Shown: piece by piece, positions 4,692 to 15,943 of the stretch
Layout: every line of letters begins with the position of its first letter
How positions within the stretch are numbered: position 1 is the stretch's first letter
Source: Synechococcus sp. A15-24
Lineage (GTDB): Bacteria > Cyanobacteriota > Cyanobacteriia > PCC-6307 > Cyanobiaceae
Reading direction: 5' to 3'
Length of the DNA stretch: 32,000 bases
NCBI RefSeq assembly: GCF_014280195.1
Contig: NZ_CP047960.1
Span: 1,560,001 to 1,592,000, forward strand
Notes under the pieces: generated by a model
Databases searched by the model: none
Told to the model about the DNA's origin: nothing
The model's input: the letters and a program-made list of their open reading frames with translations, nothing else
Made by a program: the position numbers and the translations under genes

Positions 4692-4944
4692 GCAGTCTGA
4701 AGTCAGGACCTACGACCTGCCACTTCGACCGGTCTGAGACCACCCCGGACAGCACAGAATCCTGATCCAAGAGACCCCATCAGCGGTCACCTGCACAGCT
4801 TTCCATTGATCACGAGCGACGTTCTTCATCGCGGCACTGCCGTCGAGATTTAAACCGCCGTGACTTTCTCAGGGTTTCGTCTGCACGGGACTCCACTGGG
4901 ATTGGTGCTGTTCTTCGTCTTCCCCTTTTCACGCTTCATCGACC

Positions 4945-6360
4945 ATGAGCCCTGCCGCCACCAAAACCGCCAAGCCGGACATCGTTCTGCTGGCCAACTC
5001 CGAGGGAGAGGTGGGGGAGGTCATGCCAACCGCTGAAACCAAGAAGGTTCCAGCCCGACGTCGCAGCAGTAAGGCCAGCGCCAAGGATCTAACAACAGAA
5101 GCCGACGAGCTTTTAGCCGCCGCCGACCCGAAGAAGGCAGAGGCCAGCAAAACAAAAGACAAAGCAGCTCCGAAGGCCAGCACGAAAAAGACCACGGCCA
5201 AGGCAGCAACAGCCAAGAAACCCTCTGCCAAGAAAGCCACCGCCAAGAAAGCCAGCAGCAAGACCATCGCTGCGACTGATGCGGCACCAGCCAAGGCTGT
5301 GGTGGCCAAGCCTGAAATCGTGCTGTCTCCAGAGGAGAAAGCCAAAGCCATTGCTGCTGAGAAGGCAGCGAAAGCCAAGGCGCTGGCCAGCATCAAGATC
5401 GGCCCGAAGGGTGTCTACACCGAAGACTCCATTCGGGTGTATCTCCAGGAAATCGGACGTATCCGCCTGCTCCGGCCCGATGAGGAGATTGAGCTGGCTC
5501 GGAAAATCGCCGATCTGCTCCACCTTGAAGAGCTCGCCGCTCAATTCGAGAGCGACAACGGCCGGGAACCCGACAACAAGGAATGGGCGGCTCTAGTGGA
5601 GATGCCCCTGATCCGCTTCCGCCGACGCCTGATGCTCGGACGTCGGGCCAAGGAAAAGATGGTGCAGTCCAACCTGCGCCTGGTGGTGTCCATCGCCAAG
5701 AAGTACATGAACCGGGGCCTGAGCTTCCAGGACCTGATCCAAGAGGGCAGCCTCGGCCTGATTCGCGCCGCCGAGAAGTTTGATCACGAGAAGGGCTACA
5801 AGTTCTCCACGTACGCCACCTGGTGGATCCGGCAGGCCATCACCCGTGCCATCGCGGATCAATCCCGCACCATTCGCCTGCCGGTGCACCTCTACGAGAC
5901 GATTTCCCGCATCAAGAAAACCACCAAGGTCCTCTCCCAGGAATTCGGTCGTAAGCCAACCGAAGAAGAAATTGCTGAATCGATGGAGATGACCATCGAG
6001 AAGTTGCGCTTCATCGCCAAGAGTGCCCAGTTGCCCATCTCCCTGGAAACCCCCATCGGCAAGGAAGAAGACTCGCGCCTCGGGGACTTCATCGAAGCCG
6101 ACATTGAGAATCCTGAGCAGGACGTGGCCAAAAATCTTCTTCGGGAAGATCTGGAAGGAGTTCTCGCCACCCTCAGCCCCCGCGAACGGGATGTACTGCG
6201 GCTGCGCTATGGCCTGGATGACGGACGGATGAAGACCCTCGAAGAGATCGGTCAGATTTTCGATGTAACCCGCGAACGCATCCGCCAGATCGAAGCCAAG
6301 GCCCTGCGCAAACTGCGCCACCCCAACCGCAACGGTGTTCTGAAGGAGTACATCAAATGA
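4945..6360 (+). CDS. rpoD: RNA polymerase primary (group 1) sigma-70 factor
   Basis: 471 aa. Region 2 ([29 protein letters not shown]) and region 4.2 ([30 protein letters not shown]) are present, with a long Ala/Lys-rich N-terminal extension. Confidence 0.93.
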
Positions 6361-6441
6361 TCCTCAAGCATCGCTGAAAAGCGCTGCTATTACTGAGTTC
6401 ACAGATACAGCCTTGACAACTGCACGCCGAGGGACCTCAAT

Positions 6442-8292
6442 ATGTACCTCGGCTTGTACCTCACTCTGGCTTCTGCACCGTTCCGCTATGCCTGGAGAAA
6501 GGGCAACGCTTGGTGGTTCAAGCGGCGAGTGCCTGCCAGTTGCAGAGAGGCCTTAGGCACCGCCCAATGGGCGTACAGGCTCGGGCCGATCAACGACGAG
6601 AACGGCTGTCGGATCAAAGCGGCGGAACACGAGAGAAAGACCAACGAGCTGATCAGCACGATCACAAGCGAAGTGCCGCCGTCGCCAGCAGCCGTGGAGC
6701 TGCTGGCACGGCGCATCGCAGCCAAGACCAACAACAAGCGTTTGGAAGTGCCTGAGGGCATCGCTGGCGAATCGGCGTTGCTCCTGAACAAGGCCAAGCG
6801 GTCCGCCATCGCTCAACACCTGAAAGACGACACGGCAGTGGTGCCGCTTGAGGCGGCACCAACGACTGTGGAACAGACAAAAGACAAGAACGGCGGCGTC
6901 CGACTCGCAACGCAACTGCCTGACGCAAGACACCTGCTGACGAGGTTTGAACTCACTGAGGCCAAGCTCCAACAGATCGAAGACGCGACAGCAGGCGAGA
7001 CGTTGACGATGGAAGTAGGACAAATTGCGGCATCGACGGAAGAAGCTCCGTCTGGACTGCTGACAAGCGACAAAGAGCTGGCGGGAGAGCTGAAGAAAAC
7101 GAGAGCCCGCCTGATCGATGAAGGGCAAGACGTCGATGGCGATCTGCTGCGCCGAGCCACGGCATTAGTCGCCCACCTCCAGGGCAAGCACGAGGGGAAA
7201 AGGCTGAGCGTCAATCGCGACGGCTTTGAAATGGTGCTGGAGCCAGAGAAGGTTCCCGCCGTCAAACGCAAATTGGAAGACCTGCCACGTCTGTACATCG
7301 AAGCCAAGAAAGGGGCTTACGACACCAAGCACAAGGCCATGGAGCATTTCATTGAGGTAACTTGGAAACAACATCTGGATCAGACATCCATCAACGACAG
7401 ACACAAGCTGATCAGCGATCACCAACTGAAAGGCAGGGAGAAACGCGGAAAGAAAGCCTGGAAGGATTCCACCTTCATGACAAACATGCGGCACCTGAAC
7501 TCACTGTTCAAATGGGCGGTCGACATGCAATATATAGAGAAAAATCCAGTTGAAGGATGGTCGAACGTATGGACACCTGAGAAGTCAGAGACAGACGAAG
7601 AAGACGACAGCAAGGGATTCACAGTTGATCAAATCAGGAAGATCGACAGGATCATCACTAACGGTATTTTCGACAACCCTGAAGACTTACATCTTTGGAT
7701 CTTGCAAAGATGCTTCGGAGGACGCATCTCCGAATTTGCTGGCCTACGTCACTCTGACTTCAGAGAATTCAAAGGTCAAAAGTGTATCTTTGTCGTCAAG
7801 CATTCTCTCCGATCACTCAAGAACGGAAAGACAAAGAAGATCCTCCCAGTGCCAGCTTGCATCGAATGGCTGTGGGATACCTATGCAAGCGATGACAAAA
7901 GTGTGATTTGGCCGAAGTTCATGACCCAACGAAAAGACAAGATGGGTAACATGAGGACAGAATGGGCAACTACCTTTGCTGGCAATCTTGGAAGATGGAT
8001 GAGGAAATATGCAAAAGACAACCAACTTGAACGCGAACTCCCGAATGAATACTGGACAACAAAAGTATTCAGACGTTCTATTGGATCAATCCTGAGAGAT
8101 CTCACTGGAGAAGATCACGTGAGCCGAGACCACCTCAATCTCATGAGAGGCCACGCCGACGGATCCATTGCCAGGATCTACGACGACTCAGAAGTCAGGC
8201 AGGTCGCCAGGGCAGCCGAGATCTACGCGAGGGTCACAGGCTTCGACAAAATCGCCCTGGCCATGGGGGAGTCTGAGTGTCTTACTGTCTGA
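6442..8292 (+). CDS. tyrosine-type site-specific recombinase / integrase with a long N-terminal extension
   Basis: 616 aa. The N-terminal RKGNAWWFKRRVPASCREALG resembles the Y-x-RRRVP motif seen at the N-termini of many integrases. The C-terminal catalytic residues read by eye are GGRISEFAGLRHSDF (Arg), LKNGKTKKILPVP (Lys), FRRSIGSIL (Arg) and LMRGHADGSIARIYDD (His, Tyr). Confidence 0.8.
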   Translation: MYLGLYLTLASAPFRYAWRKGNAWWFKRRVPASCREALGTAQWAYRLGPINDENGCRIKAAEHERKTNELISTITSEVPPSPAAVELLARRIAAKTNNKRLEVPEGIAGESALLLNKAKRSAIAQHLKDDTAVVPLEAAPTTVEQTKDKNGGVRLATQLPDARHLLTRFELTEAKLQQIEDATAGETLTMEVGQIAASTEEAPSGLLTSDKELAGELKKTRARLIDEGQDVDGDLLRRATALVAHLQGKHEGKRLSVNRDGFEMVLEPEKVPAVKRKLEDLPRLYIEAKKGAYDTKHKAMEHFIEVTWKQHLDQTSINDRHKLISDHQLKGREKRGKKAWKDSTFMTNMRHLNSLFKWAVDMQYIEKNPVEGWSNVWTPEKSETDEEDDSKGFTVDQIRKIDRIITNGIFDNPEDLHLWILQRCFGGRISEFAGLRHSDFREFKGQKCIFVVKHSLRSLKNGKTKKILPVPACIEWLWDTYASDDKSVIWPKFMTQRKDKMGNMRTEWATTFAGNLGRWMRKYAKDNQLERELPNEYWTTKVFRRSIGSILRDLTGEDHVSRDHLNLMRGHADGSIARIYDDSEVRQVARAAEIYARVTGFDKIALAMGESECLTV

Positions 8293-8400: not shown

Positions 8401-9687
8401 TCAGAACAGTGGGCCGTCGCCGAACTGCATTGCGCGTTCTTGGTCCTCGATCTCCAGGCGCAACTCGTGGTTACACCGATAGACATTTTGGCGTGATCCC
8501 TCGATCCACTCCTTCTGTCCTGCCTTGATCCACTTGATCGGGGCAATACCTCGGCCAACCATCCCTTTGTTGCGTTCATAGTCCTTCTCTTCACCGTTGA
8601 AGACTTCCTTCCAACATTCGATGCCTCGGAAGTAAGGACGCTGTTTTGCAAATCGGGCAATTTCAAGCGTCATGGCAACTTCCTGCATGTACTGAAGGTT
8701 GTCTTCGTCAGCAAGCTCAGAAAGCTCAAGCGGAAGCATTGGAAGTTCTCCTTCTTTGTATGCCAAGACTGCTGCCAGCAAGATGGAATCTCGCTCAGCC
8801 AAGAGCTGGTCAGTGTCAATGGGATCGACCTTGGCCTTCTGAACAGTAATGATCTGATAGCGCCTATTGCCAGTTGGATCGCTGAGGAAGTTAGCTTCGT
8901 CGTTAATTAAGCCGCAAAGAACAAACCCACGCTTATGGGATTCTGAAGTTCGACCGTATTGAGGAACAAAGTCATCCCTAACGCTCGTCACGAAAGCCTT
9001 GAAGCTGTCAGTAGCTTCAAGACGTCCAGAGACGCGCTTGCCCAACTCAGTTAGCTCTACAGCGGCAAACTGATGGATGGTCTGCAATACCTTGGCAGTG
9101 ACATCACCCGACTTTGGCATTGAGAAACCAGCAGTGATGTAGTCACCACCGACCAAGGCAGACCAGAACGAAGATTTACGGCAACCACCTTCCACTTGCA
9201 AAGTGACGATGTGGTCATACTTGAAGCCAGGCTCATACTGCCTAGCAACGAAGGCAATCAACCATTTACGTAAATAGACCGAATAGAGCTCTTCAAACTT
9301 GGATTCACCCGTAGGTCTCAAATAACGAGCAACTAGCGAATCAAGGTTTGCAGGCTCCAGCAAACCTTCTTCGTAACTCCCCAACAGTCCATAAAGATAC
9401 TGACGAACAGGGTGATAGCTGTTCTTCAATGCAGCGCGGATCATGGCATCCATTGCAAGAGCCTTCGTAACTTCAACGTCAAGCTCTTCTGACAAGATGA
9501 AGTAAGCCTGCTGAGTATCTCGGTTCAGCAGAATCTCTCCATCCAGTTCAACATCGTTGCGCATCTCGTTGAACTTGAGCCTGTCACCAAATAACTCAGT
9601 CAACAGTTTCACCACTTCACGCGGTGATGTAATTCGATTAGTAATGGCAGTCATGGCGGGATATCTCTTGGTGCTCGGCGACAGCAC
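8401..9687 (-). CDS. VirE / phage-plasmid primase-helicase-like (P-loop NTPase-like) replication protein
   Basis: 428 aa. The central block IVTLQVEGGCRKSSFWSALVGG...FAAVELTELG...FVPQYGRTSESHKRGFVLCGLINDEANFLSDPTGNRRYQIITV resembles the virulence-associated protein E / D5-like NTPase layout. Position 9687 is a GTG; an alternative ATG start lies at 9654. Confidence 0.6.
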   Translation of the reverse strand: MLSPSTKRYPAMTAITNRITSPREVVKLLTELFGDRLKFNEMRNDVELDGEILLNRDTQQAYFILSEELDVEVTKALAMDAMIRAALKNSYHPVRQYLYGLLGSYEEGLLEPANLDSLVARYLRPTGESKFEELYSVYLRKWLIAFVARQYEPGFKYDHIVTLQVEGGCRKSSFWSALVGGDYITAGFSMPKSGDVTAKVLQTIHQFAAVELTELGKRVSGRLEATDSFKAFVTSVRDDFVPQYGRTSESHKRGFVLCGLINDEANFLSDPTGNRRYQIITVQKAKVDPIDTDQLLAERDSILLAAVLAYKEGELPMLPLELSELADEDNLQYMQEVAMTLEIARFAKQRPYFRGIECWKEVFNGEEKDYERNKGMVGRGIAPIKWIKAGQKEWIEGSRQNVYRCNHELRLEIEDQERAMQFGDGPLF

Positions 9688-9726
9688 AAAAAAAAGCCGA
9701 TCAGCAATCCAATGAAGGGGGAAGCC

Positions 9727-9888
9727 TTAGAGCTTCCCTTCGATCACCTGCTTTGCATAAGCCGTTGCTGCATGGCGGATCAACACAGAACGCGAGACAT
9801 TCTTCAGCCCAGCAGCCTCATCGATTATCCTCAATTGATCAGGAAGAAAGCGAGAACCTTTGGGTGAGTATGTGTTTAGATTCGCCAT
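9727..9888 (-). CDS. ribbon-helix-helix (CopG/Arc-like) DNA-binding protein
   Basis: 53 aa from the ATG at 9888: MANLNTYSPKGSRFLPDQLRIIDEAAGLKNVSRSVLIRHAATAYAKQVIEGKL. This gives a beta-strand (SRFLP) plus two helices, the typical RHH pattern. It sits 39 nt upstream of the VirE-like gene. Confidence 0.55.
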   Translation of the reverse strand: MANLNTYSPKGSRFLPDQLRIIDEAAGLKNVSRSVLIRHAATAYAKQVIEGKL

Positions 9889-9994
9889 AGAGAAAGAAAC
9901 AGGGGCGCCCCTTATAAACGCCCCTGACAGCAAGTGAATGGACCGCCAATCGCACGCGCCGAGTTACGCGTACCCTTTAATTTTAGCGGCAAAT

Positions 9995-10024
9995 ATTGAA
10001 CAAAGAGCACGTTTTGGCTGTCAA
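9995..10024 (-). promoter_or_regulatory. candidate sigma-70-type promoter for the RHH/VirE-like genes
   Basis: The minus strand reads TTGACA (10024-10019), an 18-nt spacer, then TTCAAT (10000-9995). Downstream lies the 12-bp perfect palindrome AGGGGCGCCCCT (9901-9912), just ahead of the RHH ATG. Confidence 0.35.
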
Positions 10025-10032
10025 TAGCACTA

Positions 10033-10320
10033 TCAACGATGCCTTTTCTTGATGCGCACAACTGCGCCAGCAGAAGACCAGACTTCTTCAATCTCGTCAT
10101 CACTAACCATGCTCAAAGCATCGGCCCTTGAATCACTGGTAGGACGCAATCTCGCGTCCATCAGCTCACTTTGATTAGTACGAGAAAGTTGCTGAAGCCA
10201 GGCATTTTGGAGCCTGTCCAGATAGTCTTGCGTGGCTTGCTGCGCCTTTAGTGGCGCAGTGTGCTTCCAGCCCGATGGAAGTGGAGTGCCAGCAGGTGCG
10301 TGTGCTTGTACGTTGATCAT
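10033..10320 (-). CDS. hypothetical small protein (95 aa), translationally coupled to the upstream gene
   Basis: The ATG at 10320 overlaps the TGA of the upstream ORF (ATGA overlap). The product is MINVQAHAPAGTPLPSGW...VVRIKKRHR. No family was recognised. Confidence 0.45.
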   Translation of the reverse strand: MINVQAHAPAGTPLPSGWKHTAPLKAQQATQDYLDRLQNAWLQQLSRTNQSELMDARLRPTSDSRADALSMVSDDEIEEVWSSAGAVVRIKKRHR

Positions 10321-10613
10321 TCGTCCAGTCGTTGGGAAATGCGATTTCGTTGAATTACCTCGGCAGTTTCCAGAAGAGTGATCGCGTGAGCAAGCTCGTC
10401 CTCGCTCTCCATCCACAGCGCCGATGCATGTCTGACTTCATGGGTCATACCGAGAGTGCGCGCTTCCAAAAGCGCCATTTCCAACCCTGCGGGTTTCACT
10501 CCAAGAAGCTTGCAAAGAGAAAAGTGACGCTGCTCGTTTAAACGAGAACACCTATTCTTCCAGAGTTCACACTCCAGCAAATTGTCTGGGGAAGGAACAC
10601 ACCTTGTGCCCAT
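10317..10613 (-). CDS. hypothetical small protein (98 aa), first gene of the leftward island operon
   Basis: ATG start at 10613 and a stop overlapping the next start. A possible helix-turn-helix-like stretch (FSLCKLLGVKPAGLEMALLEAR) is not diagnostic. Confidence 0.45.
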   Translation of the reverse strand: MGTRCVPSPDNLLECELWKNRCSRLNEQRHFSLCKLLGVKPAGLEMALLEARTLGMTHEVRHASALWMESEDELAHAITLLETAEVIQRNRISQRLDE

Positions 10614-10661
10614 AATTACATCACTACGTATAAAACTATTCTAACGACGCTAAATCAAACA

Positions 10662-10677
10662 ACGTGCCCGAGCACGT
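10662..10677. promoter_or_regulatory. candidate operator palindrome upstream of the leftward island operon
   Basis: ACGTGC-CCGA-GCACGT has perfect 6-bp inverted arms. It lies 49-64 nt upstream of the ATG at 10613. A TAGAAT -10-like hexamer (minus strand, 10643-10638) lies between it and the start. Confidence 0.3.
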
Positions 10678-10749
10678 CAACACAAACTGATCTAAAAGGC
10701 AGCAGATTTGACAATGGTGGGGCAAGCGAAGATGCCCTTACAAACGGTG

Positions 10750-11433
10750 TTATTGCGCTGTGCGTTCTAAACCAAGTCGTTTCATCGTTCTCGCCACCTG
10801 AGTTGGTTGCCAAGCGGTCTTGCCAGCAGGCGTTTTGACGCCTGCTGCCATCAACGCATCAGCAATTTGAGCGAGCGTTGCGGTGTTCGCAGTGAAGGCA
10901 GACAGAAAGCCGCGAAGCCTTTCTGCCTCTGAATCCGCCTTTGCTTGCTGAGCAGCCCTTGCTCGTTCTTGATTTGGCCGCAGCCCTCCCAACTTCACCC
11001 CGCGAGCCTTGGCTGACGCCAGGCCCGCCTTCGTTCTTGCACTGATGAATTCCCGCTCCTGCTCCGCCAGGGCTGAATAGATGTGGAGTTGGAATTTGTC
11101 CGCATGCGGCATCGAGGCCACCTTGAACTCCAGGCCCTCCTCCTCCAGCAGCGCAGCAATAAAGGAGACACGACGCGACAAGCGATCGAGACGAGCCGCC
11201 AGCAGCGTTACTCCAGTTGCCTTGCACTGCGCGATGGCTTTGGTCAGCTCAGGACGATCGTTGTCAGTTGCGGTTTCGACTTCTTGGTAGCTCCCAAGCT
11301 CTTCGCAGCCTTCAACGTCGGGGCAGCAAGCGCTCAGAAAAACGTACAAATTACGGCGCTGAGCATCCAGACCGTAATTGCGGCCGTTCTTGCTGTCATG
11401 CGACAGACTGAGGTAGGTGACGAAGTGACCCAT
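10750..11433 (-). CDS. small serine recombinase (resolvase/invertase family), copy A, with a non-canonical catalytic motif
   Basis: 227 aa from the ATG at 11433, which is the start shared with copy B. Motifs are YLSLS (expected Y-x-R-x-S), ARLDRLSRR, EQEREFISARTKAGL and a C-terminal HTH-like TLAQIADALMAAGVKTPAGKTAWQPTQV. About 91% aa identity to copy B by hand alignment. Confidence 0.8.
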   Translation of the reverse strand: MGHFVTYLSLSHDSKNGRNYGLDAQRRNLYVFLSACCPDVEGCEELGSYQEVETATDNDRPELTKAIAQCKATGVTLLAARLDRLSRRVSFIAALLEEEGLEFKVASMPHADKFQLHIYSALAEQEREFISARTKAGLASAKARGVKLGGLRPNQERARAAQQAKADSEAERLRGFLSAFTANTATLAQIADALMAAGVKTPAGKTAWQPTQVARTMKRLGLERTAQ

Positions 11434-11439
11434 GAAGCC
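10771..11439 (-). repeat. 669-bp direct repeat, copy A (serine recombinase gene body)
   Basis: Aligns without gaps to 13207-13875 at an offset of 2436 bp. Similarity starts about 20 nt inside the 3' end of the gene and stops 6 nt upstream of the ATG (shared CATGAAGCC). Confidence 0.85.
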
Positions 11440-11826
11440 TTTGCGCAAGCCTCCTCTATTAACCATCTAAAACATCTCCACCGCATCAATTCCTTTCAAT
11501 TGCAGTACGAAGCAAAACATGAGGCAACAAGCTTCCGAATGCAACAGCGCTGGAATATGTCAGGCAGCGGTCAATAACTGGAAGCTCTGAATCATATCTA
11601 ATTAACCAAAAAAATTTAAATCAAAAGTGTCATTTTTTTTAACCAATCAAGTGCAACCGAGATATATAAAAATAGTCATTCTCCTCTGCCGAAGCCAGAT
11701 AAAAAGAGGGCGGGCCGTGGATAGAAAGTCACACCAAACCGCAATACTTCACGCCGGCCGAATAAAAACCCAATACCAAAGATCAAATATGATACATTTG
11801 AACCGACAAACCTCTAATTAGCCTCA

Positions 11827-13101
11827 ATGCACGAATTCAAAAAATATTTGTCAAATGAAAACTCTGCTCTCGAAAAATCATCCTCAAAAGGCATAAATTA
11901 TCCCTTTTGGTTCAAGAAAGACGATTTCAGCATAAACATCCAAGACCGCCAAGAAATCCCGGCAACGATACTCTCAATGGAGGGGAATAAAAATTATGAT
12001 AAGTTTGTGATTCCGTCAAATTTCAACTCACTAGCCGACCAACTTTGCAAGTACTACCTCTACCTTCTCAAGATAAGCAACCACAAAAACAATCGCCAAG
12101 AATTACAAATAATACCCAACGACACCATACTGAAAGCAATCCACAACTACCATTTTGCAGAAAATTGCTGCAAAATAGTAAATTCGCTCAGCATGCAGCC
12201 CATTACTATCTTTGAGACAGGACCTGGAGCTGGATTTCTAGCCCCATTACTCATTTCAAACATAGACCTCGAGAGATATATTCACTTTGATGTTTATCAA
12301 CCCTACTTTTCTTTGCAGAGCATTGGACTTAATTACTCTGAGACTTTAAACAATGAATATCACCATTACGACCTAAGCCAAAGCAATCAAAAATATAAAG
12401 ATCTAGCTGACAATGTCAGATTTCAATTTTCACCAGAATCGACAATAACAGCGACTAGCATTGGCTTGCCTTCACAGTTACTGAATCCTAATGCTCATAG
12501 AGCATTAATATCAATTCCCTGGTGGCATATCAATGACTTCAAAGAATCAGACACCAGTCCCGACTTATGGATTGCAAATGGCTGCCTGCAGGAAATGGAC
12601 AAGAAAGATTTTGTTGAATATATCAACATGGTTGATAAAAAAAGTACAGAAAATAGCCTTTTACTTGTTTGCGGGACTGGAGCGACAAGAGACTTCTACC
12701 TTGTTAATGAACTAATACAAAACTCAAATTTATATCCTATAGTAATGGCTGGTAAAAACATTCCTTTCCTTGAAGGAGAAAGATCATATCTACAGACAAT
12801 GCTTTTCGCGCATAAAAACAGTATCTATTTCAAAGACTCAAAAGGAAGTTGCAATAATGAATTATTTTTCAAATCAGATTTAATGACAGCTTGTTCAAGG
12901 AGCATTGTCGGTGAATTTTCCTCGAGGGTGACCATGGAGCACTCAGGAATGTATATACATCCGCAAGCTTACTTTGTAGCCAAGGCTCTCTTCAAGGAGA
13001 TCGGCTGCTTACCGAAGCCCAAAAGTACTGGACTATATATCGACTCAGTCGAACAGACATCGGAAGATGAGTTCACCACGAAATACAAATCAATCCAATA
13101 A
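11827..13101 (+). CDS. AT-rich orphan protein with a class I SAM-dependent methyltransferase-like motif
   Basis: 424 aa and about 35-40% GC in three hand-counted 60-nt lines. ITIFETGPGAGFLAPLL fits motif I (E-x-G-x-G-x-G). An acidic residue follows about 20 aa later (YIHFDVY), and DLWIANGCLQEM is motif II-like. I saw no DNA-methyltransferase DPPY/NPPY or PCQ motif. Confidence 0.45.
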   Translation: MHEFKKYLSNENSALEKSSSKGINYPFWFKKDDFSINIQDRQEIPATILSMEGNKNYDKFVIPSNFNSLADQLCKYYLYLLKISNHKNNRQELQIIPNDTILKAIHNYHFAENCCKIVNSLSMQPITIFETGPGAGFLAPLLISNIDLERYIHFDVYQPYFSLQSIGLNYSETLNNEYHHYDLSQSNQKYKDLADNVRFQFSPESTITATSIGLPSQLLNPNAHRALISIPWWHINDFKESDTSPDLWIANGCLQEMDKKDFVEYINMVDKKSTENSLLLVCGTGATRDFYLVNELIQNSNLYPIVMAGKNIPFLEGERSYLQTMLFAHKNSIYFKDSKGSCNNELFFKSDLMTACSRSIVGEFSSRVTMEHSGMYIHPQAYFVAKALFKEIGCLPKPKSTGLYIDSVEQTSEDEFTTKYKSIQ

Positions 13102-13194
13102 CTTACAATAAAAGCCAGTCAAGTCAATGCCAAGTTGAATAAAATTATAAAATAGTCTGCGTTAAAAATTGAAATCATGTTAGTTGAAAGATCA

Positions 13195-13869
13195 TCATCG
13201 CTCCAGACCAAGTCGCCTAATTGTTCTCGCAACTTGAGTCGGCTGCCAGACAGTTTTTCCTGCTGGTGTTTTCATACCAGCCGCCATGAGCGCTTCAGCA
13301 ATCTGAGCGAGCGTTGCGGTGTTGGTAGTGAATGCAGACAGAAAGCCGCGGAGCCTCTCTGCTTCTGAATCCGCCTTTGCTTGCTGAGCAGCCCTTGCTC
13401 GTTCTTGATTTGGCCGCAGTCCTCCCAGCTTCACTCCGCGGGCCTTGGCTGCCGCCAGGCCAGCTTTCGTTCTTGCGCTGATGAACTCCCGCTCCTGCTC
13501 CGCCAGGGCTGAATAAATGTGGAGTTGGAACTTATCCGCGTGTGGCATCGAAGCCACCTTGAATTCCAAGCCCTTCTCTTCCAGCAGCGAGGCGATAAAG
13601 GAGACACGACGCGACAAGCGATCAAGACGCGCCACGAGCAGCGTTGCTCCTGTTGCCTTGCACTGCGCGATGGCTTTGGTCAGCTCAGGACGATCGTTGT
13701 CAGTTGCGGTTTCGACTTCTTGGTAGCTCCCAAGCTCTTCGCAGCCATCAGCATCAGGGCAGCAAGCGCTCAAGAAGACATCTAAGTCGCGCCGCTGAGC
13801 GTCGAGGCCGTAATTACTGCCGTTTTTGCTGTCGCGAGACAAGCGGAGGTAGGCGACGAACTGACCCAT
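13195..13869 (-). CDS. small serine recombinase (resolvase/invertase family), copy B, canonical motifs
   Basis: 224 aa. Motifs are YLRLSRD (Y-x-R-x-S with the nucleophile Ser), ARLDRLSRR, EQEREFISARTKAGL and a C-terminal HTH-like segment. Confidence 0.85.
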   Translation of the reverse strand: MGQFVAYLRLSRDSKNGSNYGLDAQRRDLDVFLSACCPDADGCEELGSYQEVETATDNDRPELTKAIAQCKATGATLLVARLDRLSRRVSFIASLLEEKGLEFKVASMPHADKFQLHIYSALAEQEREFISARTKAGLAAAKARGVKLGGLRPNQERARAAQQAKADSEAERLRGFLSAFTTNTATLAQIAEALMAAGMKTPAGKTVWQPTQVARTIRRLGLER

Positions 13870-13875
13870 GAAGCC
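13207..13875 (-). repeat. 669-bp direct repeat, copy B (serine recombinase gene body)
   Basis: Gap-free alignment to 10771-11439, with roughly 85-90% nucleotide identity by eye. Confidence 0.85.
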
Positions 13876-14046
13876 AATTTACGCCGGCCAACGGACGTTG
13901 ACCTCGTAAAACGGTCAGTTGAGCGGTCGGCCGAGATGTCTGAATCCGTTGTTTTCCTATATCCGAGCTCTCTGTAATGACCCAGAGCACTTTCACTACA
14001 AACGAAACAACCTGGTACCCACCTCGGTACCTCACCTGGTATCTCG

Positions 14047-14366
14047 TCCGCTCCCAAGCCTTTGGCCCAGCTTGGGTTTCAGCCGAGAGCGGAAAACATC
14101 AAGTAAGTCCTGCAGGAGCCCTTCAGGGCTCCATCCCCGGCAGCAACTTCACCAGTAGCCAGACGCAGAGAATGATTGCCATGAGCACGTAAGCCTCGTT
14201 CACTGCACCTCTTCAAGTGATCAAAGTTTGGCAGGACTGCCACATCACATAAGTACATCTGCACCTACCTAGGCTCCCCCAGCCGCCCTATAAGGGTGAA
14301 GAGGGAATTGAGACGCCCTCCTCACACGGAAGAGATCAAACCCTGGCGGAAACCGGGGTTTTTTTT
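14047..14366 (+). ncRNA. candidate structured non-coding RNA, or displaced 3' UTR of rpoD
   Basis: I found no convincing ORF on either strand. Nested helices can be read directly: CCGCTC-CCAAGC...GCTTGG...GAGCGG (14048-14092), GGAGCCC-TTCA-GGGCTCC (14115-14132), TGGCAG-GA-CTGCCA (14229-14242) and GTGAAGAGGG...CCCTCCTCAC (14296-14325). The stretch ends in a strong + strand terminator. Confidence 0.3.
14338..14366 (+). terminator. rho-independent terminator (+ strand; possibly bidirectional)
   Basis: AAACCCUGG-CGGAAA-CCGGGGUUU stem-loop followed by a run of 8 T (14359-14366). No + strand CDS lies upstream. The minus-strand gene ending at 14410 faces it, but has only TTT after the hairpin in that orientation. 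Confidence 0.65.
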
Positions 14367-14409
14367 GGCTCAAACAGCGTTACTGACGGGCAGCAAGACC
14401 AAACGCGGC

Positions 14410-14886
14410 TTAGTCCTCAAAACTCTCCGTAAATTCTTGAAACGCGCGTTTCAGTCGCTCCACCGGTGTTTCCTCCAGGGGGCACTCCTGGGAGGTCTGG
14501 GTCGCGTAAGCCTGCAACAGGAGGCCATCGGGTTCAAGGACTGAGGCCACGGCATGCTTGAACAACACCAGGTTGCTCTGGGGAGTGAGTCCACTGAGGA
14601 AAGGGGTCAAGGTGAAGCCCTCAGCCTCGCTGTCGCAGCTAAGCACCCGCCTGGGGCGAATCAATTGATAAGCAGGCTGACCGTCGCCATCAGTGGTGGT
14701 GCGCAACCGTGCCATGAGCAACTCACCACTGCTTAAAAGGAGAAGGCGAATGGTGCCCTCTGCCATCAGAGGCAGCTGGGGCTCGTCCGACGACCCACCT
14801 GTCACGGACGACGAACTCGACAACGTGGCCTGACGTACACCGTTCACAACTGGGCCTGGCATACATCGACGGGCTGATGGCGACAA
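14410..14886 (-). CDS. conserved hypothetical protein (start uncertain)
   Basis: 158 aa ORF divergent from hemC. Alternative ATG starts lie at 14862 and 14766 (MAEGTIRLLLLSSGELL...). Codon usage is like the core genes, and no family was recognised. Confidence 0.5.
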   Translation of the reverse strand: MSPSARRCMPGPVVNGVRQATLSSSSSVTGGSSDEPQLPLMAEGTIRLLLLSSGELLMARLRTTTDGDGQPAYQLIRPRRVLSCDSEAEGFTLTPFLSGLTPQSNLVLFKHAVASVLEPDGLLLQAYATQTSQECPLEETPVERLKRAFQEFTESFED

Positions 14887-14989
14887 TGTTACGCAGTCTT
14901 CACAGAACCACGATCCACCGCAGCAGCTTCACATTCGCAGAACCAACAGGCCGCGAGTCCGTAGTCTTGGCGGCTGATTCGCACTCTCC

Positions 14990-15943
14990 ATGGCTCTCAC
15001 CGAACTGCGCATCGCCTCACGTCGCAGTCAGCTGGCGATGGTGCAGACCAACTGGGTGAAGGCGGAGTTGGAGAAAGCCCACCCTGGACTCACCATCATG
15101 GTGGAGGCGATGGCCACGCAGGGGGACAAGATCCTGGATGTGGCTCTGGCCAAGATCGGCGACAAGGGCTTGTTCACCAAGGAACTGGAAGCGCAGATGC
15201 TGGTGGGACGCGCGGACATCGCCGTCCATTCCCTCAAGGATTTACCCACCAACCTGCCTGAGGGCCTGATGCTGGGCTGCATCAGCGAACGGGAAGACCC
15301 CGCCGACGCACTGGTCGTGAATGCCAAGAATCAGGCTTTCAAGCTCGACACCCTTCCCCAAGGAGCGGTGGTGGGCACCAGCTCCCTGCGCCGGCTGGCA
15401 CAGCTGCGTCACCACTACCCCCACCTGATCTTCAAGGACGTTCGCGGCAACGTGATCACGCGCCTTGAGAAGCTCGACTCAGGCGACTACGACTGTCTGA
15501 TCCTGGCGGCCGCTGGCCTTAGCCGCCTGGGATTCGGCGACCGGATCCACCAGATCATCCCCGGTGACATTTCTCTTCATGCCGTTGGCCAGGGCGCCCT
15601 TGGCATCGAATGCGTGGAATGGAAACCAGAGGTTCTGGAAATCATCAAGGTGCTGGAGCACACCACCACCTCCCGCCGCTGTCTGGCAGAACGCGCCTTC
15701 CTGCGAGAGCTGGAGGGGGGCTGCCAGGTGCCGATTGGTGTTAACAGCCAGATCAGCAATGACGACCTCACCCTCACGGGCATGGTGGCAAGCCTGGATG
15801 GCAGGCGCCTGATCCGCGATGAGGCCAGTGGTTCCGCTGCTGACCCCGAGTCCATCGGCATCGAGCTGGCCGGCAAACTCAAGCAGCAGGGCGCAGGAGC
15901 CATCCTCAAGGAAATCTTTGATGAGGTCCGTCCCGAGGCCTGA
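14990..15943 (+). CDS. hemC: hydroxymethylbilane synthase (porphobilinogen deaminase)
   Basis: 317 aa. [39 protein letters not shown] and RGNVITRL are present. The cofactor Cys region [11 protein letters not shown] is also present. Confidence 0.92.

Follow-up and report, generated by a model that had tools for sequence, protein, structure and literature searches.

The hallmark genes of tycheposons include those for a tyrosine recombinase that faces inward, a helicase of the VirE type, and small serine recombinases, and both tandem and iterative tycheposon events have been reported (Hackl et al., bioRxiv 10.1101/2020.12.28.424599). In addition, tycheposon-like insertions lying upstream of the phycobilisome regions of Synechococcus contain tnpR-like resolvase genes, which have been read as the result of repeated integration (PMC8995045). 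Here, we analyzed a 32,000-nucleotide stretch of Synechococcus sp. A15-24 (RefSeq assembly GCF_014280195.1, contig NZ_CP047960.1, positions 1,560,001 to 1,592,000 of the forward strand), referred to below as the window and used for all coordinates, in which two serine recombinase genes, labeled recA and recB, bracket an AT-rich cargo gene. The three genes belong to a 7.7-kb integrative element, the insertion point of which is the 3′ end of a sigma-70 gene, next to hemC. A preliminary description of the window had taken the recombinase pair for a type of element not described before. The pair is in fact located inside a tycheposon-like integrative element, a class for which the small serine recombinase is a listed hallmark gene, and the locus is the outcome of ordinary recombination and does not represent a novel element type.

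The two recombinase genes, recA (10750-11433, 227 amino acids) and recB (13195-13869, 224 amino acids), are both encoded on the minus strand and share a direct repeat at an offset of 2,436 bp, in which 10771-11439 aligns without gaps to 13207-13875. The ungapped alignment confirmed the repeat as it had been reported in the preliminary description, and the 91% identity given there holds for the two proteins but not for the DNA, which is identical at 582 of 669 positions (87%). The 87 mismatches are concentrated at every third base, and comparison of recA with recB over the whole repeat gave a ratio of nonsynonymous to synonymous divergence (dN/dS) of 0.07 and a dS of 0.61. Both products match the Pfam Resolvase family (E values of 2.6e-19 for recA and 4.9e-24 for recB, with the recB alignment running from model position 2) as well as the PHROG DNA invertase family, in agreement with the initial reading of two serine recombinases in direct orientation. 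Their matches in the PDB comprise Gin invertase, gamma-delta resolvase, and Tn3 resolvase, and Gin invertase is the closest solved structure, with a match confined to the catalytic domain. For recA, GenBank annotates a 238-amino-acid form, which starts at an in-frame ATG further upstream (11466). Both recombinases, like the cargo product, match proteins of Synechococcus sp. A15-24 exactly. On the 3′ side, similarity ends 11 nt short of the recA stop codon, and recB is 3 codons shorter. On the 5′ side, the end of similarity first noted at 6 nt upstream of each ATG holds for the ungapped alignment, but when indels are allowed, decayed similarity reaches to about −42, which was equalled by 0.3% of shuffles or sliding windows. 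Comparing the −7 to −42 segment by position thus gave a significant result, unlike a local alignment of the 260-nt upstream regions of the two genes; a local alignment of their 3′ flanks was not significant either.

The non-repeat part of the 2,436-bp unit (11440-13206) comprises 1,767 bp, with about 150 bp of intermediate GC content followed by the AT-rich cargo. The GC content is 38.0% between the repeats, 57 to 58% within them, and 59.8% across the window, which bears out the foreign look ascribed to the intervening DNA and the direction of the early hand-counted contrast (about 35% versus 60%), if not its exact values. Neither terminal inverted repeats around the unit nor a transposase among the open reading frames (ORFs) of the window, as judged from the ORF list and Pfam, could be found, and an insertion sequence or composite transposon was rejected on these grounds. 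An invertible switch of the Hin/Gin/Pin type was rejected because the genes are direct repeats and a single candidate site is present. The preliminary description had set aside both element types as well.

The history of the two genes became apparent upon comparison with four independent single-copy relatives, namely, that of strain MU1643 (locus L001) and those of the metagenome contigs L047, L048, and L055. At the sites that differ between recA and recB, all four relatives are recB-like from the 5′ flank through approximately nucleotide 418 to 420 of the gene, and all four are recA-like from approximately nucleotide 435 through the 3′ flank. A maximum chi-square test located the switch at nucleotides 418 to 435, with the observed value being reached by 4 of 10,000 permutations, and the best estimate of the crossover interval is accordingly 10999-11016 in recA and 13435-13452 in recB (both on the minus strand). 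Synonymous divergence follows the same pattern. Over the 5′ 123 nt, dS to the MU1643 gene was 1.45 for recA and 0.39 for recB, whereas over the 3′ 112 nt (nucleotides 561 to 672), it was 0.37 for recA and saturated for recB; in between (nucleotides 124 to 560), dS was about 0.3 between recA and recB and 0.26 to 0.52 against MU1643. The genes recA and recB are reciprocal chimeras. The resident gene is represented by the 5′ part of recB, with an intact active site, and the 3′ part of recA, while an incoming allele, rec′, is represented by the 5′ part of recA and the 3′ part of recB. Neither 120 homologs nor the 90% identity cluster contained a closer relative of the incoming allele (N terminus of recA, C terminus of recB). 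On their inner sides, the two genes adjoin one continuous foreign segment of 1,767 bp, which suggests a donor in the form of a 2,436-bp circle or a tandem or concatemer of this unit. In L048 and L055, the 5′ flank of the recombinase gene continues unbroken to the equivalent of window positions 14093-14102, and because of this uninterrupted flank the single-copy, cargo-free state is considered the common and basal one. The homologous loci being single-copy, recA and recB do not have the appearance of ordinary paralogs with unrelated, conserved neighbors.

The two copies also differ in the state of their active sites. Compared to 120 relatives, recA deviates specifically at R9S (R in 119 of 120), D28N (D in all 120), D30Y, A75V, and V79A, while recB has no unique deviation at positions conserved in at least 90% of them. 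The Y-x-R-x-S motif thereby reads YLRLS in recB and YLSLS in recA, and the alignments of recA to the Pfam and PHROG profiles omit this N-terminal motif. The affected position corresponds to Arg8 of the Tn3 resolvase motif, the mutation of which strongly lowers cleavage and recombination (PMC2794168).

An imperfect palindrome of 33 bp (13878-13910; TTTACGAGGT-CAACG-TC-CGTTG-GCCGGCGTAAA) extends from −9 to −41 relative to the recB ATG and is most likely the recombination site of the enzyme, its operator, or both. Neither a second palindrome in the 32-kb window nor a second copy in 72 loci of the family was found. Of 127 non-redundant loci, 73 have the core (at most 1 mismatch allowed) in the 120 nt that precede the gene, against an expectation of about 0.024 per 120-nt search window. 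Alignment of the upstream regions revealed that the core CAACG-NN-CGT(T/A)G is kept in relatives down to approximately 44% protein identity and that the outer arms are specific to subfamilies. Core-bearing loci span cyanobacteria, alpha- and gammaproteobacteria, and viral contigs, and a subgroup at 57 to 59% identity carries CAACGTTG instead, without the 2-nt spacer. The same site architecture precedes a homologous recombinase gene on the 6.4-kb Synechococcus elongatus plasmid pIITB3_2, which has no annotated replication gene; there, the core (within positions 4790-4860) is part of a 16-bp perfect inverted repeat (CTTGTAACACCCTCAA ... TTGAGGGTGTTACAAG). Upstream of recA, only a decayed palindrome remains (11440-11472, minus strand), with arms partly retained and the CAACGNNCGTWG core absent; its positional alignment to 13878-13910 reached a score matched by 0.3% of controls. 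Having lost both the catalytic arginine and the site core, recA is probably catalytically inert, while recB, of which the active site and the upstream site are intact, is probably the working enzyme. Since an intact site is found only at recB, site-specific excision of the cargo is unlikely; deletion by homologous recombination is possible.

We then considered how often such a doubled arrangement occurs. The family survey comprised 151 genomic, metagenomic, and viral-contig loci (1.4 Mb in total), none of which had two close recombinase copies. Recurrence of this layout is therefore not supported, and the doubled arrangement is a one-off rather than a class of elements. The only other locus with two family members is an IMG/VR viral contig (L143), in which two distantly related, divergent serine recombinase genes, forming a distant and partial pair (1-669 and 6001-6678), lie in direct orientation 5.3 kb apart. 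Elsewhere, members of the family are found with defense genes and an integrase, with an AAA_25 helicase, among ordinary genes, or on a plasmid.

Independent support for the assembled arrangement came from a 1,288-bp metagenome contig (L153; ENA ERZ23491327), which is collinear with window positions 12667-13954 and spans the 3′ end of the cargo gene, recB, and the palindrome. This contig confirms the junction between cargo and recB and thus speaks against a misassembly of the window. It is 96% identical to the window overall and 99.3% identical in its cargo part, and most of the differences are held by two recA-type tracts in its recB gene, at nucleotides 219 to 354 and 507 to 621. One tract boundary falls within just 5 identical bases, and such limited identity makes real gene conversion a better explanation than k-mer chimerism. 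The tracts suggest that gene conversion between recA and recB occurs in wild populations.

We propose that the locus probably originated from a Campbell-type insertion, whereby a 2,436-bp unit carrying rec′ and the cargo gene was joined to the resident recombinase gene by one reciprocal crossover inside that gene. The incoming unit would have consisted of the diverged allele and an AT-rich orphan methyltransferase-like gene, either as a circle or in tandem in the donor, and the exchange would have taken place in the well-conserved middle of the ORF. Identical runs of 95 nt and 56 nt are usable for homologous crossover. The expected product is the arrangement seen in the window, i.e., recA (resident 3′ half and rec′ 5′ half), the cargo, and recB (rec′ 3′ half and resident 5′ half). 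We infer that the crossover was homologous (RecA-type) and not catalyzed by a serine recombinase, because the switch lies inside the ORF and the site and flank of recB are wholly of the resident type; a crossover at the palindrome would give one wholly resident and one wholly incoming gene along with hybrid half-sites. Homologous recombination between recA and recB could in turn delete the cargo, restore a single intact gene, and free a circle of rec′ and cargo, as the preliminary description had anticipated when it stated that recombination between the repeats would remove the cargo and one copy. Gene conversion between the copies would also be possible. As for recB itself, its likely task, judging from the resolvases of plasmids and transposons, would be to resolve multimers of the excised, replicating element at its single site and to repress its own promoter. 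Such a role is made plausible by the occurrence of the family beside replication genes (VapE; AAA_25) and on the 6.4-kb plasmid with the same site.

Among the three origins put forward at the outset, the accretion of a recombinase-plus-cargo module comes closest to this proposal, with the difference that the crossover lies within the gene and not at a recombinase-linked site. Likewise, the layout calls for no new mechanism, as it carries the reciprocal-chimera signature of a single homologous crossover within a gene. Nonetheless, several observations weigh against the proposed insertion or its details. The longest identical run (95 nt, nucleotides 124 to 218) does not coincide with the switch found by the breakpoint test, and the crossover point is blurred over nucleotides 219 to 450 by shared polymorphism and, probably, by gene conversion. 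Neither a free circle nor a tandem donor nor a native rec′ locus was encountered, and the cargo and rec′-type ends are limited to A15-24 and a single environmental contig that is almost identical to it. The direction of the event, i.e., insertion as opposed to an ancestral two-copy state with repeated deletion, follows from parsimony only, and L153 could partly be an assembly chimera. Finally, the C-terminal matches to HTH_62 scored 22.7 and 18.1 bits, under the 27-bit Pfam cutoff.

Site-specific alternatives start from the palindrome. Its conservation immediately upstream of the gene throughout the family, the position of the MU1643 cargo, the start of which coincides exactly with the palindrome's outer boundary, and the decayed copy that still precedes recA would all suit an integron-cassette-like unit of rec′ and cargo, excised and integrated by the serine recombinase at this site, and the inserted unit is formally a circle bearing a recombinase gene. 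We nevertheless consider such a cassette unlikely, given that the switch lies within the ORF and that both half-sites of recB, together with its flank, are of the resident type instead of hybrid. Moreover, a second site was found in 0 of 72 loci, the doubled layout recurs in no other locus, and the incoming 5′ part encodes R9S. There is similarly little to recommend the broader idea that circles of recombinase and cargo are a minimal cassette moving between tycheposon-like elements, with the recombinase gene as homology arm or the palindrome as attachment site. Circles as a regular cargo-loading vehicle are improbable, with the present case as their sole support; if this were true, small serine recombinase modules would be docking points for loading cargo onto picocyanobacterial islands.

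Other explanations place the duplication elsewhere in the history of the island. Two whole elements could have integrated in tandem at the sigma attachment site, with subsequent internal deletion of the second integrase-VapE module. Tandem arrays are reported for tycheposons, the resolvase genes of Synechococcus insertions are ascribed to iterative integrations (PMC8995045), and MU1643 shows duplicated right-end remnants around attR, yet such a course predicts two non-chimeric genes, so that the observed mosaic needs two more exchanges at the same place. The deletion would also need an endpoint precisely at one gene's stop codon, and no remnant of att, integrase, or VapE is present between the copies, which makes this scenario quite improbable. 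The polarity of the Campbell-type insertion could also be reversed, with an ancestral two-copy state from which single-copy relatives derive by homologous deletion. Deletion between the repeats does yield the recB-5′/recA-3′ gene of all four relatives, but the single-copy clade encloses the resident segments of the window (dS of 0.3 to 0.4 to MU1643, compared to approximately 0.7 between MU1643 and L048), and repeated deletion at similar points would therefore be needed. As the AT-rich orphan cargo is, in addition, limited to A15-24 and L153, we regard this reversal as doubtful. An in situ tandem duplication with later capture of the cargo and divergence or subfunctionalization of the paralogs, which had also been among the first suggestions, would be in keeping with direct orientation, intact ORFs, and low dN/dS. 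It is very improbable in view of dS values that are saturated at opposite gene ends and about 0.3 mid-gene, with each copy close to outside relatives in one half; selection cannot yield such a pattern, which excludes duplication in situ followed by divergence. Although repeats can mislead assemblers, an artifactual duplication is hardly conceivable here, considering the 87 differences over 669 positions, the different flanks, the single 2.3-Mb contig of the record, and the independent L153 contig, which spans cargo, recB, and the upstream site.

The cargo gene (11827-13101, plus strand) encodes an orphan protein of 424 residues. A word-indexed protein search returned only the self-match in Synechococcus sp. 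A15-24, whereas a full HMMER scan recovered remote homologs at 33 to 34% identity. No match was obtained in Pfam, NCBIfam, PHROGs, or PADLOC. At the nucleotide level, the cargo region had no counterpart in phage genomes and, in 154 loci, was matched only by L153 and by the locus of a remote homolog (L154, 33% amino acid identity). Alignment with the remote homologs revealed a GxGxG motif with invariant G132, G134, and G136, and the homologs match Methyltransf_12 and Methyltransf_23, below threshold only. A PDB profile search pointed weakly to methyltransferases, with E values of at least 0.009, and a single-sequence AlphaFold2 model was unusable (predicted local distance difference test score of 34). 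One homolog (P0123) sits in a sugar-modification cluster with genes for a sugar epimerase, a glycosyltransferase, and a radical S-adenosylmethionine (SAM) protein. It would be a reasonable guess, and no more than that, that the cargo product methylates a surface glycan as a class I SAM-dependent methyltransferase.

The island itself has the gene order sigma-70, integrase, VapE-like helicase, small ORFs, recA, cargo, recB, approximately 230 bp of conserved non-coding DNA, DUF6561, and hemC. The sigma-70 family gene (4945-6360, plus strand; Pfam Sigma70_r1_2/r2/r3/r4), whose 3′ end is the attachment site, also flanks the elements of MU1643 and of the more distant locus L155. The attL region (6350-6419) comprises the stop of this gene and about 60 bp downstream. 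In MU1643, a 70-bp att stretch is present at both element ends with 81 to 83% identity, and in the A15-24 window the att repeat is reduced to an 11-bp core, ACATCAAATGA at 6350-6360 and ACATCAAGTAA at 14097-14107. At the left end, an inward-facing tyrosine-type integrase of 616 residues (6442-8292, plus strand) matches the PHROG integrase family phrog_1 (E value of 2.9e-15) and, weakly, Pfam Phage_int_SAM_5/DUF6538; only 5 homologs were found among 5.8 billion proteins. It represents an unusually long and rare lineage of tyrosine recombinases that targets the 3′ end of the sigma-70 gene and is barely recognized by Pfam. It is followed by a VapE/VirE-like helicase gene (8401-9687, minus strand; VapE-like_dom E value of 1.7e-39, along with PHROG DNA helicase/primase families), which constitutes the replication module, and by three small conserved ORFs of 68, 127, and 98 amino acids (9727-10613, minus strand) that are syntenic between VapE and the recombinase gene in L001, L047, and L048. 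A terminator-like hairpin (10660-10679, minus strand), found by a terminator scan in the resident 3′ flank downstream of recA, is kept in MU1643, and blastn aligned window positions 9671-11439 to that strain at 83% identity. At the right end, a conserved segment (13953-14107, 85% identity to MU1643) terminates in the ACATCAAGTAA core. This segment occurs twice around attR in MU1643, and in L048 and L055, which lack cargo, it runs on without a break from the 5′ flank of the recombinase gene. The chromosomal flank (14410-15943) contains a DUF6561 gene on the minus strand and hemC on the plus strand, as identified by Pfam DUF6561 and Porphobil_deam, and is the same in MU1643.

The related element of MU1643 occupies the same sigma/hemC site and has a single recombinase gene and a different cargo, consisting of two paralogous T5orf172/MUG113 genes around a gene for a 219-amino-acid protein. 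Its right end (reverse complement of L001 13199-13525) contains two 150-bp right-end copies, a full 70-bp att copy, and an extra att fragment, and these duplications have the look of traces left when elements integrated one after another at the sigma-gene site. Distant variants of the integrase-VapE element were also seen in L155 and L156 (ENA ERZ24794615). L155 has a complete sigma-70 gene directly upstream and carries other small genes in place of a serine recombinase, which indicates that the recombinase is an optional module of the element; contig L156 ends too early to show the region after VapE. No tRNA or tmRNA was detected in the window with ARAGORN, and Rfam at gathering thresholds gave no credible match. 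Just outside the island, at 14301-14361 (plus strand), a stretch of about 45 nt (GAGGGAATTGAGACGCCCTCCTCACACGGAAGAGATCAAACCC) precedes a strong terminator hairpin with its T-run. The GAGGGAATTGAGACGCCCTCCTCACACGGAAGAGATCAAACCC stretch is near-identical in A15-24 and MU1643 (approximately 13621-13680 of the L001 reverse complement) within otherwise unconserved intergenic DNA. It could represent a small RNA or an element of a 3′ untranslated region; the fold z-score of the region was −2.0, and an Rfam search of 14100-14450 with E values up to 1 returned no credible match.

The locus offers a clean natural example of cargo loading onto a picocyanobacterial island, with a conserved hallmark gene serving as homology target and with a reversible, duplication-flanked insertion as the result. 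It also illustrates that a pair of recombinase ORFs can look intact without there being two active enzymes or a system of site-specific cassettes. A side result of the analysis is a candidate recognition site, a palindrome of about 33 bp with a CAACG-NN-CGTTG core and subfamily-specific arms, for an uncharacterized family of small serine recombinases with a wide distribution among marine cyanobacteria and proteobacteria, where it occurs on islands, viral contigs, and a small plasmid. The candidate site makes the biochemistry of this family directly testable.

In its overall plan, the A15-24 island resembles the tycheposons of Hackl et al., in that one end carries an inward-facing tyrosine recombinase, accompanied by a small VapE replication module, a small serine recombinase, and, at the far end, cargo. 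It is unlike them in its attachment site, the 3′ end of a sigma-70 gene instead of one of seven tRNA genes with partial tRNA repeats, and in the very rare family of its integrase. With the insertions described in PMC8995045 it shares resolvase-type genes inside integrase-bearing insertions of marine Synechococcus; according to the excerpted text, those insertions sit at tRNA-Phe, and that excerpt describes no recombinase duplication bracketing cargo. The small serine recombinase is comparable to Tn3/gamma-delta TnpR and plasmid resolvase modules in that it combines an N-terminal catalytic domain with a putative C-terminal helix-turn-helix and has a candidate site directly upstream of its own gene, and its family is likewise tied to replicons, including the 6.4-kb plasmid. 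In contrast to Tn3 res, where two direct sites of three subsites each are accompanied by a DDE transposase, there is one palindrome of about 33 bp and no transposase. Compared to typical Campbell-type integration, the event was natural, involved alleles that are approximately 80 to 87% identical, and would have drawn on a donor circle deduced from its product. As in the integration of a suicide plasmid, the outcome is a pair of direct, reciprocally chimeric copies around the incoming DNA, in an arrangement that is reversible.

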